64,000 bases of DNA, taken from the NCBI RefSeq assembly GCF_018350175.1, contig NC_058368.1:50159815-50223814 (forward strand). Reading direction: 5' to 3'. The first letter of the stretch is position 1, and each line of letters begins with the position of its first letter. Below the pieces are notes generated by a model. The model was not told the origin of the DNA. It did no database searches and saw only the letters and a list, made by a program, of their open reading frames with translations. The position numbers were made by a program, and so were the translations under genes. Positions 18,263 to 34,198 of this stretch are shown in pieces. The stretch comes from Felis catus (Eukaryota).

Positions 18263-18515
18263 GTTGCGAAAGCGACACAGATTCTGAATTTTCATCCAAG
18301 ATGCAGGATTATAATAAAGACGATATGTCCTATCGAAGGATTTCAGCTATTGAACCAAAATCTGCTTTACCATTCAATCGTTTTTTACCCAACAAAAGTA
18401 GACAGCCATCCTATGTGCCAGCGCCGTTGAGGAAGAAAAAGCCGGACAAATACGAGGATAACAGAAGAAGTTGGGCAAGCCCGGTCTATGCAGAAGCGGA
18501 TGGAACATTTCCAAG
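18263..18515 (+). CDS. LMO7: LMO7 exon, 253 nt, [25 protein letters not shown]...[15 protein letters not shown]
   Basis: tttttatag|GT TGC...CCA AG|gtactg; overlaps ORF 18301..18534; phase 1 to 2. Confidence 0.95.
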
Positions 18516-18852
18516 GTACTGGGATGCGAGCTGATGGTGGAATTTTAAGATTCAGTGCACTTTGTGAATTTGCAGGGATATTTAAATGTGGGAAAAGGAA
18601 TAGTTCTTAAAATGTATTTCATAGCCCAAAAATTTCACTAATGAAAGTGCATTTTTTTTCTTACTATTATCTTTAGTCATGCATATCCTGAAGGTGTTTC
18701 TTCCCTTTTAGGATGTCAGCCTATGGTGTGTTGGTTCTTTTTTTAGATACATGCCTTTAGCTTATTGACATCTTTCAGCATATTGGATGACTTCTGCTTT
18801 TCACTGTGAGCTGTTGTTTTCTTCCATTTTTTCCCTGTTTGATTGATCTCAG

Positions 18853-19137
18853 TGGACACACAGAGAATCCTTTAATTTCCCATCAAATTAGCAAAGCAGA
18901 GTGGGATTTTTCCAATGCAGCTTCCTGTCAGAAGGAGGTGTACGGTTCTGAAAGTGGTTCGGACTCCGAGGATGAACGAAGGTTGCCTGATGTAGTTTTG
19001 GATGACTTAGCCAACCGTAGATTCCAAGTGAAAAAGAGGCCTGAGTGTTTCATCTCGAAAACCACCTCTCCTAGCTCTTATTCGCAAAGGTTTTCTCCTG
19101 CTGACCCATTAGCCACTGGGCTGTACGAGTTGACGAG
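18853..19137 (+). CDS. LMO7: Probable LMO7 cassette exon, 285 nt, (S)GHTENPLISHQ...SDSEDERRLPDVVLDDLANRRF...LYELT
   Basis: Pyrimidine tract then ctcag|T, ends ACG AG|gtcaga; open frame, phase 2-2; carries the LMO7-type PDxxxDDxxxRR motif. Confidence 0.75.
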
Positions 19138-19450
19138 GTCAGAAAAATTCTCCTAGATCAGAATGTCTGTTATGTTGATTTTAATATATAACACCCCAGA
19201 TTGTTTGCAATTTTATCTCTTTTTAACACATCTTATAATTATCTTTGGCCCTTGCATATCATGCTATCCTCTGATTAAAATGAGATGCTGTTATCATGCC
19301 TTAACTTTGTTCTAGGAGCTGTCATGATAGAGTGGCAACTAATTTGTCTCATTCAGTGATATAAACTTTGTGAGCCAGAAAGCATGCCTTTTGTGTTCTG
19401 TGTCACAAACTGCTCATTCAGTATCTTAACTGGTTGGATGTTTTGAACAG

Positions 19451-19729
19451 TAATGAGAGGAGAACTTGGGGTACCAATGTGGAGAATTGGCCAACAATAC
19501 AAGAAACTTCAAACTCCTCTTGTTACTTGGAAGAGAAAGAAGCAAAGACAAGTACACCCAACACCGTAAAGGATGATCTTTATGTGCGAAAGCTAAGTCC
19601 AATCATGCCAAACCCAGGGCATGCTTTTGATCAGTTTCTTCCCAAATGTTGGATCCCAGAAGATGTGAACTGGAAAAGAATAAAAAGAGAAACTTACAAA
19701 CCATGGTATAAAGAATTTCAGGGATTCAG
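19451..19729 (+). CDS. LMO7: LMO7 cassette exon, 279 nt, (S)NERRTWGTNVENW...YKPWYKEFQGF
   Basis: ttttgaacag|T AAT...TTC AG|gtttgt; phase 2-2; matches the long human isoform. Confidence 0.92.
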
Positions 19730-20001
19730 GTTTGTCTCTGTGCATGTTTCTGTTGTTCTAATGTTCATTCGGCACCCTGGCTGGGTGTCTTCTGTGTGTG
19801 CTTTTTACGAGAGGGAAAGAGAAAGGTTCCTTTTCCCTTTAATACCCATAGGACCTCTATCACTGAAAAAAAAATGCTGTTTAAGTTTAAACCTTAGGAT
19901 CTGGATCTTAAAAAGCCTTCTGCACGGCAGTATTTTCAGTAGTTCTAGTTTTCTCCAACTCTTTCTCCTTTCCTCCCTCCTTTCTCTGTATCACTCTACA
20001 G

Positions 20002-20205
20002 TAGGAGGAATTCAGATTCTGAGGATGAGGATTCAGGCTCTCACAGAAGCTCCTCCATTTTTAGTAGAATCCAAAAAGCAAAGCATAGGCTAGACAGCAA
20101 CTGCCAAAGACGTTCACTCTTGCTGGAACTGGCTACCAGAGGGGCCAAGAACTCCTGGGACACCCATGCAGCCAGGGGAGCCAGTGGTGCCGCGGACGAG
20201 CCCAG
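20002..20205 (+). CDS. LMO7: Probable LMO7 cassette exon, 204 nt, (S)RRNSDSEDEDSGSHRSSSIFSRIQKAKHRLDSNCQRRSLLLELATRG...AADEP
   Basis: Long pyrimidine tract (~19950-20000) then ctacag|T AGG; ends CCC AG|gtgtac; open, phase 2-2; missed by the ORF track. Confidence 0.65.
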
Positions 20206-20538
20206 GTGTACCTGTGTGCATGAGCCTGCCTGCTTTGAGTCTGGCCTGGGACATCTGTGCCAGTTTCTGCTGCTACTTTAATCTCTGACCATGATGCGCT
20301 GGGTCATGAAACCTTATAACATTTAGCATAAAAGCATAATGTATAACGTATTGCTTTCTATGGGAACATATGAGCTTGGAAGTCTATGGAATTAAATATT
20401 CTTCACAGTAATGTACAAGATAGTACATGTGGCATCGTCTGTGCTTTTGGAAAATTATTTCTAAAAAGCTTTTGTGAAAGTTGACCTAATTCTGTGGTTT
20501 TGCTATGTAAGGAGATGTGGAGAAAGGAAATAACTTTT

Positions 20539-20771
20539 TTTAAAAAGTTTTTATTTAAAAATTTTCTTTGAATGTTTATTTTTGAGAGACAGAGAGAGAC
20601 AGAGCACAAACAGGGGAGGGGCAGAAAGAGAGAGGGAGAAACTGAATCTGAAACAGGCTCCAGGCTCTGAGCTGTCAGCACAGAGCCTGACGCGGGGCTC
20701 AAACTCAGACCCTGAGATCATGACCTGAGCCAAAATCAGACGCTTAACCAACTGAGCCACCCAGGCGCTCC
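20539..20771 (-). mobile_element. CAN-SINE
   Basis: Antisense SINE body; TSD-like aaataactttt on both sides. Confidence 0.93.
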
Positions 20772-20834
20772 AGAAAATAACTTTTAGATAGACACCAGGG
20801 CGCACAAGTCTAGTGGGAAAATGCAGAGAAAAGA

Positions 20835-21059
20835 TTTTTTTTTAAAGTTTATTTATTTATTTTGAGAAAGAGAGGGAGCTGTGCATGCACGAGCAGGGGA
20901 GAGTCAGAAAGAGAGGGAAAGAGAGAGAGAATTCCAAGCAGGGTCCACGCTGTCAATGTGCAGCCCGACTCTGGGCTCGACTGCACGAACCATGAGACCA
21001 TGACCTGAGCCGAAATCTATAGTCGGACACCTAACCGACTGAGCCACCGAGGTGCCCCC
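20835..21059 (-). mobile_element. CAN-SINE (older subfamily)
   Basis: Poly-T, GA tract, ...gactgagccaccgaggtgcccc. Confidence 0.9.
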
Positions 21060-21524
21060 ATTGGGGTCTTTTTGAATGCTTCACAGCATTTTATTTTTTT
21101 AATTCTGCTGACTACCTGTGCCTATTGCATAAAGTGCTTAATGACCGACTCTTCAAAATCTGCAAGATCGCTGCTTCGCTGGGATGGGGGCTGTATCACT
21201 GTGGGTGACAGAATACGGGCAGGGTAAAAGCAAGTATGTATTCATCAGGGAGGTGTGTGCTGTCTACGTTTTAGCCCCATCAGTTGGCCTGGACAGCACC
21301 CACCTTTCTTGAGAAGCACACGCTGCATTTGCTTATTTAAATGGTATCCAAGAAAGTCACGGGTGATGGCATTAAAGGCTAGTCTTTCTCCCAAGCAAGA
21401 ATCCCTCCTGTGACTCCATGACATATTTCACCCGTGGTAACTGACTAGTTGGTCTGCTGCCTAATTACCTGTTCTACCTGAGCTTAATAAGATTCTCCCT
21501 TCCTTTTTCTTTTCTGTGCTTCAG

Positions 21525-22244
21525 TCAGTTTTTATTACTTCAGGCCCTCCAAACATATTCTGATGACATCTTGTCTTCTGAAACAAATACCAAAATTGAT
21601 CCCACTGCCGGCCCCAGGCTCATAACACGCAGAAAGAATCTCTTTTCTGCACCAGGGTATAAAAGAGATGACCTCGAGATGTCAACCCTAGACCCTGATT
21701 TAGAGAATGATGATTTCTTTGTCAGAAAGACTGGCGCTTTCCATGCAAATCCGTATGTTCTCCGGGCTTTCGAAGATCTTAGGAGGTTTTCTGAGCAAGA
21801 TGATCCTGTCGAGCGAGATATAATTCTGCAGTGTAGAGAAGGTGAACTTGTACTTCCGGATCTAGAAAAAGATGATATGGTTGTTCGCCGACTTCCAGCA
21901 CAGAAAAAAGAGGTGCCTCTGTCAGGGGCCCCAGACAGATACCAGCCAGTTCCTTTCCCTGAACCCTGGACTCTTCCTCCAGAAATTCAAGCCAAGTTTC
22001 TGTGTGTGCTTGAAAGAACACACCCATCCAAAGAAAAAAGAAAGAGCTGTAGAGTGTTAGTGCCTTCCTACCGGCAGAAGAAAGATGACCTGTTGACTCG
22101 CAAGATCCAGTCCTGGCAGCTGGGGACGACCGTGCCTCCCGTCAGCTTCATCCCTGGCCCCTGCAGTGAGGCAGACCTGCAGAGGTGGGAAGCCATCCGG
22201 GAGGCCAGCAGACTTAGGCACAAGAAACGGCTCATGGTCGAGAG
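21525..22244 (+). CDS. LMO7: LMO7 large cassette exon, 720 nt, (S)QFLLLQALQTYSDD...RHKKRLMVE
   Basis: ctgtgcttcag|T CAG...GAG AG|gtcaga; covers ORF 21571..22296; phase 2-2. Confidence 0.94.
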
Positions 22245-23200: not shown

Positions 23201-23230
23201 ACTCTTTCAAAAGATTTATGGTGAGAATGG
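23201..23230 (+). CDS. LMO7: LMO7 30-nt microexon, (R)LFQKIYGEN(G)
   Basis: gatttcttag|A CTC TTT CAA AAG ATT TAT GGT GAG AAT GG|gtaagt; phase 2-2; peptide present in human LMO7. Confidence 0.92.
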
Positions 23231-30565: not shown

Positions 30566-30683
30566 GAGCAAGTCCATGAGTGATGTCAGCGCAGACGATG
30601 TTCAGAACTTGCGTCAGCTGCGTTATGAGGAGATGCAGAAAATAAAATCACAATTAAAAGAACAAGATCAGAAATGGCAAGAT
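30566..30683 (+). CDS. LMO7: LMO7 exon, 118 nt, SKSMSDVSADDVQNLRQLRYEEMQKIKSQLKEQDQKWQD
   Basis: tttgtcgtag|G AGC...GAT|gtgagt; phase 2 to 0. Confidence 0.95.
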
Positions 30684-32744: not shown

Positions 32745-32887
32745 GACCTTGCAAAATGGAAAGATCGTCGAAAAAGCTACACTTCAGATCTACAGAAGAA
32801 AAAAGAAGAGAGGGAAGAAATTGAAAAGCAGGCACTTGAGAAGTCTGAGAGAGGCTCGAAGACATTTAAGGAAATGCTGCAGGACAG
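32745..32887 (+). CDS. LMO7: LMO7 exon, 143 nt, DLAKWKDRRKSYTSDLQKKKEEREEIEKQ...FKEMLQD(R)
   Basis: ttctgttag|GAC...GAC AG|gtaaga; phase 0 to 2; coiled-coil-like. Confidence 0.95.
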
Positions 32888-34198
32888 GTAAGAAAGCTGA
32901 GTGCATCTCATGGTTGCAGATACCAGTGTTAGAAATCCATATTTTATGTAAGTGTAGTGTGATGGAAGGTGTATGCCAATATTAAACCATAAACAGATAG
33001 ACATTCAAGTCTCAGTATGTTGCTCTGTAAAGCAAAAGCAAAGTATTGGATTAACAAAAGAAATGGGCGCTTAATATAGTGTGCTTTACTTCCTGATTTT
33101 TACATTGTATATTCACATGTGATACTGGATGGTGTTGGCTATAATTGGTGCCGAAAATAAACTACTTTTCCTCCTTTTAAAGTGAATTTAGGAATGGAGT
33201 GGCCAAATAAAACCAGGTCCCACTCTTCCAAATTGTGTAAAATATGAAGTTCCTTTTCACGTTTTAGTGGTGCGATTAAAATTATATTTTAAAAGAAGAC
33301 AATATAAACGTAAATGGGAGGGGGTGTATTTTTGGCGTTGCAACGTGACAAGATAAAGGTCCAATTTAAACTTTCCTGTAGAGCAGTTGCTGTGAGAAAC
33401 CTTGGAATATTTCTAGGTCATGGGGAAGGCAAATATGCTTTATGGATAATGTCAAAAAGGAAATGTGCTGTCAGGTGAAATTAAACAAAACTCCTTTGTG
33501 CCCTAGAAGCCAATGGTAAACACCGTTTCTTTCACTTAAAGGCAATGCAGTTTGAAAGGTATTCCCTACTAAACAGGAGTGACAAGGATGTTTCATGAAG
33601 TTCTCTATAAATATGAATGGTGTCTTTAATCTGTAACAATTGTCCATGTGAGTTCTCTCAAGCCGTGTGAAATCATATCCTAACTTGATCTTCCTGAAGT
33701 CTGAGTCCTTTGTGGAAATCATTTATTTTTACTAAATTGTTTAAAATTGTGTACAGGGAAAAAAAAAAGCTCATAATCTTGTACAGGAAGCCACATTTTT
33801 GGAAGGTTCAGATTGGTTGTAAGTTAGTTATGTCTACAGTGTGCTAATTTGGGAAGATTTATGAACTTGTGGGTAAAGCTTTGTGAAGAATCCCTTATTA
33901 AATATCTTAATTTTCTTATTAACAACTCTTTACAATTAAAAAAAAAATCCCTCTCCAGTATTTGGAAGTATTTGAGAACCTGCTTAAAAAAAAAAAAAAA
34001 GTCCAGTTCTTACAATTTTTAAGTGTGGCACTAAAAAAATCACGTGTATTTATTCTATTACCATTGTATTGGTTATTGTGTGAAGTCGGTAGCCTTTTTA
34101 TTCTTTGTCTTACGTTCTTGCCAAAGTAACCCGTGTGTCTCTACCTCCTTGTGCTAAATGCATAACTTTATGGTTACGGTGTGCTTCTTTCTGCTAAG

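Follow-up and report, generated by a model that had tools for sequence, protein, structure and literature searches.

The 64,000-nucleotide window of the Felis catus genome studied here (contig NC_058368.1, positions 50,159,815 to 50,223,814 of the forward strand) is the LMO7 gene, on the plus strand. Using a combination of methods (profile-profile alignment, hidden Markov models, shuffled controls, conservation in orthologues, a genome-wide pattern search and structure prediction), we showed that four of its exons, referred to as A to D, encode six copies of an ancient repeat unit. The paralogue LIMCH1 likewise contains repeated copies of this unit, and the data support both its multiplication by exon duplication and the setting of its copy number by splicing. 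We further propose, with about even confidence, that the core of the units in this splice-varied array docks an actomyosin partner.

The repeat unit of exons A to D

An earlier reading of the window, made from its letters alone (the sequence-only reading), had listed six peptides of the pattern DD-x3-R[RK], all of which were found at their places in the plus-strand translation, one each in exons A, B and C and three in exon D. With bounds taken from the AG/GT splice sites and the reading frame, exon A (18263-18515, 253 nucleotides, plus strand like all the exons below) carries unit 1, with the core KDDMSYRR and its DD codon at 18319. Cassette exon B (18853-19137, 285 nucleotides) carries unit 2, in which an acidic Ser cluster is followed by LPDVVLDDLANRR (DD at 19001), and cassette exon C (19451-19729, 279 nucleotides) carries unit 3, with KDDLYVRK (DD at 19572) and a FDQFLPKCW...W..IK block common to unit 1 and the LIMCH1 units. 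Cassette exon D (21525-22244, 720 nucleotides) carries three units: D1 (DPDLENDDFFVRK, 21709), D2 (LPDLEKDDMVVRR, 21871) and D3 (KKDDLLTRK, 22084). The ungapped alignment of copies A and C over 25 amino acids also stood, with 11 identities by hand count, and to the earlier exon list we could add cassette exon E (20002-20205, 204 nucleotides), which lies between C and D, begins RRNSDSEDED and has no motif. No seventh DD-x3-R[RK] site occurs elsewhere in the 1808-amino-acid felid LMO7 isoform, which maps exon by exon onto positions 10409-63891 of the window.

Six matches of the pattern were found in 508 amino acids, versus 0.038 expected from composition, and more than two matches arose in none of 20000 shuffles, so that the repeat detection is significant against shuffled sequence. 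The pattern was picked after viewing the data, and the following independent tests weigh more. When the six cat copies were compared as single sequences by Smith-Waterman alignment of their flanks only, the scores were mostly non-significant, except for the downstream flanks of A and C (p 0.004) and the upstream flanks of D1 and D2 (p 0.016); orthologue profiles were thus needed to see the unit. Such profiles, built from a ten-sequence LMO7 alignment and compared with hhalign, gave P values of at most 3.5e-5 for 8 of the 15 pairs of motif units (A-C, an hhalign probability of 90% over 62 columns; D1-D2, 92%; C-D1, 88%; C-D2, 80%; C-D3, 79% over 50 columns; B-C, 77%; D1-D3 and D2-D3, 72% each) and below 0.02 for 14 of them. 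As controls, all 13 pairs that included one of the motif-free segments E and D0 had P values of at least 0.028. The LIMCH1 units resembled each other more strongly (L1-L2, 98.9%; L2-L3, 99.2% over 73 columns; L1-L5, 98.2%), and the units also aligned across the two paralogues (C-L2, 97%; D3-L2, 97% over 67 columns; D1-L5, 96.6%); in this LIMCH1 and cross-paralogue comparison the windows of adjacent exon D units overlap, and its D1-D2 value was left unused. On the family proteins, a 34-column hidden Markov model (HMM) of the unit gave 340 domains, 271 of which beat the best of five-fold shuffled proteins. These comparisons establish that three or more of the units are homologous beyond the short pattern.

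A HMMER search with exon A against 1.84 billion representatives retrieved 120 proteins, many with two to four matched stretches, and 89 of these family representatives contain 239 instances of the strict pattern, with a maximum of seven per protein. At positions that the pattern leaves unfixed, the 225 unique instances have P at -5 in 78%, D/N at -4 in 87%, K/R at -1 in 74% and M/L at +2 in 93% of cases. The true core therefore comprises 12 residues, P-[DN]-hydrophobic-x-[KR]-D-D-[ML]-x-x-R-[RK]. Thus, the short motif of the sequence-only reading is real, but it is only the centre of a unit of approximately 60-90 amino acids with further conserved blocks. Upstream of the core there is usually an acidic Ser-rich cluster and, further upstream in several copies, an I-I-L-R-K-E-N-x-F block; downstream, many copies have (F/Y)-N-Q-F-L-P and C/I-[ST]-x-x-D-x-x-x-W-x-x-[IL]-[KR].

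The core is also an island of conservation, the contrary of which the sequence-only reading had named as refuting it. In a MAFFT alignment of ten LMO7 sequences (cat family, turtle, frogs, axolotl, lungfish, gar and four others), the mean identity in the five core columns, taken over all six copies, is 0.85, versus 0.51 in the other 551 columns of exons A to D (Mann-Whitney p 2e-10; p 5e-5 for six windows placed at random). Similarly, in 15 LIMCH1 sequences the motif columns reach 0.82, versus 0.47 in the rest (p 2.7e-9).

LIMCH1, taxonomic range and splicing

The sequence-only reading had mentioned, without confirming it, a similar motif in LIMCH1, and we found that LIMCH1 indeed repeats the same unit. 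A lizard LIMCH1 protein query located the cat LIMCH1 gene on the minus strand of contig C11, where five open frames (one homologue of exon A and four downstream cassette frames) match LIMCH1 proteins exon by exon and hold one motif each, namely PDVKKDDMSARR, PDLEKDDFAARR, PDLYKDDLAQRR, IRDDFASRR and QKDDMMVRR. In tblastn searches, the query copy 1 cross-matched the exon of copy 2 and vice versa (E approximately 1e-5). Directly after the open frame of copy 2, at about 170287240 on the minus strand, there is a long (TG)n microsatellite, which starts at the point where similarity to LIMCH1 proteins stops, on or beside the presumed donor site.

Within the 2.43-Gb cat genome, searched on both strands with simple repeats skipped, the back-translated pattern P-D-x-x-K-D-D-[LMIF]-x-x-R-R, which leaves looser motif copies outside it, matched four times, each match falling within exon D of LMO7 or within LIMCH1; a control with the pattern reversed gave two matches. 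Among 30 named representatives of the 120, from which the taxonomic range was taken, four to six strict copies occur in the LMO7 of the cat family, turtle, frog, axolotl, lungfish, gar and elephant shark, and four to seven in the LIMCH1 of lizard, frog, axolotl, caecilian, white shark, paddlefish and teleosts. The most distant of the 30 is the lamprey, whose LMO7 representative has one copy, and none is an invertebrate. No mammalian LIMCH1 protein was among the protein-search matches, and the cat gene was read instead. Since the array occurs in vertebrates ranging from cartilaginous fishes to mammals, it probably predates the split between LMO7 and LIMCH1.

The best 120 LIMCH1 models retrieved with a lizard cassette-region query, a set of reptiles, birds and one sturgeon model that was selected for having the cassettes, have 3-9 strict copies, mostly 5 or 6. 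At most, LIMCH1 has seven strict copies within the set of 120 family representatives, and nine in one sauropsid model. In paddlefish LIMCH1, three identical units of 90 amino acids stand in tandem (residues approximately 520-790), through either a recent exon triplication or an artefact of the assembly or gene model. In a LIMCH1 model of 1412 amino acids, residues 1-161 are a ubiquitin C-terminal hydrolase (Peptidase_C12) fused to LIMCH1, probably by a merge with a neighbouring gene, and the Pelobates LMO7 model (2436 amino acids) has an identical exon A region twice (at approximately 230 and 1300), probably because the model or the assembly is duplicated.

Units and same-phase exons correspond to one another, except that exon D holds three units. 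Exon duplication, as suggested by the sequence-only reading, is supported by the profile-profile homology, by B and C being single-unit exons of the same phase, by the cat LIMCH1 gene and by the tandem units of paddlefish. Every exon from A through a 30-nucleotide exon (LFQKIYGEN, 23201-23230), which serves as the acceptor for exon A in the short form or for exon D in the long form and was missed by tblastn, ends at codon base 2. Each of the cassettes B, C, E and D has a length divisible by three, starting at codon base 3 and ending at base 2, so that any cassette can be skipped in frame.

The dosage of the motif by splicing, another proposal of the sequence-only reading, is likewise supported by gene models and literature. 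Among the best 120 isoform models with exon A, one copy is found in 79, two in 2, four in 14, five in 15 and six in 10. This census covers carnivores and bats, was retrieved with the exon A query, so that exon A is in all 120, and includes two short contig products whose frames run into an intron. In one Logan contig protein, exon A is joined directly to exon C, after which the frame runs into the intron; 20 of the 24 sequencing runs listed hold 96-99% of the window's words, introns included, and are probably DNA. According to the literature, mouse and rat have a heart- and muscle-specific Lmo7 exon of 201 nucleotides that starts with RRNS (Capitanchik et al., PMC7000147), a description that cassette E fits. 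In human cardiomyocytes, RBM20 knockdown alters the inclusion of LMO7 exons 9-11 in the published numbering (PMC12054628). Human LMO7 isoform 3 lacks residues 356-690, the function of which was termed unknown (PMC8657913); these 335 residues equal the size of B plus D here.

DUF4757 and the proposed docking of an actomyosin partner

Pfam DUF4757 (a model of 167 positions with a gathering cut-off of 27 bits) matches residues 21-76 of exon A with its positions 1-55 (55.6 bits, E 1.1e-14). The model begins at the third core residue, the M of DDM..., and in this way cuts the motif in half. Copy A is thus the N-terminal half of the domain that has been published as binding the heavy chain of myosin II, and the actomyosin partner suggested by the sequence-only reading thereby gains a real link. 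By itself, exon D matches DUF4757 below the cut-off (residues 198-239, profile 20-64, 18.1 bits, E 0.0034), and the full long isoform scores 201.5 bits in two stretches, the better of which comprises D3 and the downstream exons (profile 20-167). As judged by this profile match, D3 replaces copy A beside the C-terminal WQ-WK helix in the long isoforms. The WQ-WK site, WQDDLAKWK, lies at residue 845 of the 1808-amino-acid isoform, and its W, Q, W and K residues hardly vary among 32 sequences. Of the exons for the C-terminal half of DUF4757, the site is encoded by the first (30566-30681, ending ...QKWQD) and, from 32745 onward, by the second (32745-32888, DLAKWKDRRKSYTS...).

The DUF4757 of Lmo7 and Limch1, also called NMBD (Matsuda, Chu and Sokol), belongs to the same proteins and the same region as copy A. 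In Xenopus Lmo7, it is required and sufficient for the co-precipitation of NMIIA and NMIIB, and the replacement of WQ-WK by alanine abolishes recruitment (10.1101/2021.05.12.443820). Phosphomimetics of S355, T357 and S358 reduce myosin binding (10.64898/2026.01.24.701484). In addition, the N-terminal coiled-coil region of human LIMCH1 binds the NM-IIA head (Lin et al., PMC5391182). Only these two proteins, Xenopus Lmo7 and human LIMCH1, are known to bind non-muscle myosin II heavy chain.

From the correspondence between copy A and this domain, we infer that the unit may dock myosin. In the mechanism that we propose, the core would be a disordered, helix-prone linear motif docking an actomyosin partner, myosin II heavy chain being the most likely one, and splicing would turn a one-site adaptor into a multivalent one in the heart and muscle isoforms. 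A more specific version, which we put forward tentatively and regard as clearly less secure, is that the myosin-II domain consists of the non-repeated helix plus one docking unit, to which splicing in heart and muscle adds further units, so that a monovalent adaptor for myosin would become a multivalent cross-linker of actomyosin. The number of docking units would be raised from one to six or more, by RBM20-dependent splicing in LMO7 and by the six-exon cassette in LIMCH1.

Structure prediction is consistent with a linear motif. In the AlphaFold2 (AF2) model of the one-copy form (32-row alignment), residues 1-85 are unstructured, with a predicted local distance difference test (pLDDT) of 45-58, and a confident long helix (91-155) contains WQ-WK. 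For D1-D3 joined to the C-terminal half (23 rows), AF2 placed short helices at 23-29, 73-81 and 149-158 (pLDDT approximately 40-56), the motifs of exon D being at 22-28, 76-82 and 147-153 of the construct, and a confident helix (175-206) on the block after D3. Around the motifs, the pLDDT is 34-58 overall, and AF2 gave no folded unit, only disorder. This predicted disorder, together with the conservation island (0.85 versus 0.51), is what would be expected of a helix-prone linear motif embedded in disordered sequence, and not of a folded repeat domain. To our knowledge, none of the catalogued classes WH2, RVxF, 14-3-3 and LIR fits all the copies.

Several observations weigh against this overall reading of repeat, dosage and docking. 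First, the published mutations at WQ-WK and S355/T357/S358 affect the C-terminal helix (in the cat, WQDDLAKWK-DRRKSYTS) and fall outside the repeat. Second, binding by the motif itself was not found in the accessible portions of the LMO7/LIMCH1 family papers. Third, the DD of LMO7 copy A is replaced in turtle, amphibians and the ray-finned fishes examined, where only K...YRR is invariant, and mammals, lungfish, elephant shark and lamprey retain it; such a loss would be surprising in a copy that provided the essential contact with myosin. Fourth, AF2 shows no packing of unit 1 against the WQ-WK helix (predicted template modelling score, pTM, 0.37). Fifth, two of the unit pairs within LMO7 are weak, namely A-D1 (P 0.08, the weakest of all) and A-D3 (P 0.017). 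Sixth, the isoform counts are those of gene models, many of which are automatic predictions, and the RBM20-dependent exons 9-11, numbered as published, may or may not coincide with B-D.

It is worth noting that WQDDLAKWK-DRRKSYTS resembles a stretched core (DD-L-A-K then RRKS; compare KDD-M-L-A-RR-T-S), and that the WQDDLAKWK site is split across its two exons between its two Ds. As a seventh copy, the WQ-WK site was rejected, the unit HMM having no match there in the three proteins checked (3/3), and it is kept as a lead only.

A rival to the docking of myosin, possible though we lean against it, is that the units dock another partner (F-actin, alpha-actinin, afadin or a phosphatase) or act as phospho-switches, in which case the repeat would tune regulation or localisation and not myosin valency. 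The location of the published myosin-binding mutations outside the repeat speaks for this alternative, as do the basophilic kinase consensus that ends several copies (RRIS, RKLS, RRTS), with a Ser three residues after the first Arg in LMO7 copies A (YRRIS) and C (VRKLS) and in LIMCH1 copy A (ARRTS), the frequent T (41%) or S (24%) at positions +7/+8, and the localisation of the muscle form of LIMCH1 (mLIMCH1), which differs from that of the short form (PMC10052820). However, this Ser is missing from most copies (B, D1, D2 and D3), which argues against phosphorylation as the defining feature, and myosin II binding is the only mapped function of the copy A region.

We consider it unlikely that the extra units are partnerless, D3 rebuilding DUF4757 beside the WQ-WK helix and the others being relics that serve as disordered spacer. 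This possibility would agree with the match of D3 and the downstream exons to DUF4757 positions 20-167, and with the disruption of DUF4757 in some splice variants (Matsuda et al., 10.1101/2021.05.12.443820). Yet relics would not keep a core identity of 0.8-1.0 from sharks to mammals in every copy, and B, C, D1 and D2 are conserved as well as D3.

Conservation at the RNA level, with purine-rich AAR-GAY-GAY series operating as exonic splicing enhancers and the protein motif as their by-product, is highly improbable. The motif does lie mostly in alternative exons, and its K-D-D codons are GA-rich, but the invariant Arg is written with both codon families (CGA, AGG, CGT, AGA and CGC in LMO7; AGG and CGG in cat LIMCH1) and the Asp as either GAT or GAC, exon A, which is found in every model retrieved, has the motif too, and conservation follows residue classes (M/L, R/K) across the paralogues. 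Finally, a chance origin of the six matches in a disordered sequence rich in D (7.7%), R (8.1%) and K (7.5%), to which the post hoc choice of the pattern might lend colour, is scarcely credible, being refuted by the shuffles, the conservation, the homology of the units and the genome specificity.

Known systems, significance and gene layout

Exon-encoded repeats in disordered sequence, the number of which is set by splicing, are of a known kind, met here in two well-known proteins. In tau, a cassette exon encodes one microtubule-binding repeat (3R/4R), and it is known both what the repeats bind and what a change in their number does. Similarly to tau, LMO7 and LIMCH1 have exon-encoded homologous units in disordered sequence, with a short conserved core and a splice-varied number, whereas the proteins and sequences are unrelated. 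The Xin repeats and the SDxxYK modules of nebulin bind actin, F-actin being their proven partner; they are also short cores repeated in cytoskeletal or muscle proteins as splice-variable arrays, and we know of no sequence resemblance between them and the unit described here.

Concerning DUF4757, Pfam describes one domain of 167 positions, the N-terminal half of which appears here as one of 4-7 repeat copies, and the published critical residues belong to the C-terminal helix, which is not repeated. That the N-terminal half is a repeat copy is not mentioned in the Pfam text scanned or in the accessible portions of the DUF4757 preprints. More generally, a description of the repeat was not found in the literature searched, which comprised text only, figures and most subscription journals being outside it, and the word 'repeat' occurs zero times in an in-silico dissection of LMO7 (PMC8657913). 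In LIMCH1, the six muscle exons of mLIMCH1 add 454 disordered residues 'with no identifiable domains' (Penna et al. 2023, PMC10052820). The mLIMCH1 cassette is an in-frame, tissue-regulated exon block at the same insertion place in the paralogue, and the cat LIMCH1 frames located there have one unit each, their equivalence to the mouse exons being presumed from position and number.

LMO7 and LIMCH1 regulate the contractility of actomyosin in epithelial, heart and muscle tissue, and their cassette regions have so far been termed functionless or domain-free. The repeat unit offers a concrete and mutable handle on these regions, because they are copies of a strongly conserved unit, this unit also makes up the N-terminal half of the mapped myosin-II binding domain, and the cat genome is otherwise free of the strict motif. 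The RBM20-dependent splicing of LMO7 and the phenotype of the mLIMCH1 knockout thereby become directly testable. If true, the formation of a multivalent cross-linker would explain the muscle weakness that follows the loss of the 'domain-less' LIMCH1 cassette.

As regards the gene itself, exons A and D in translation match Felis catus LMO7 isoforms at 100% identity and the isoforms of other felids at 98%. In the 1808-amino-acid isoform, a Pfam scan recovers CH, DUF4757 and PDZ; LIM is found in its sister isoforms and in orthologues. The intron between E and D is low-complexity or SINE-like (short interspersed nuclear element) at approximately 20550-21010, where the open frames of both strands read RE/SL repeats, and the G+C content reaches up to 0.45 in 20001-22000.

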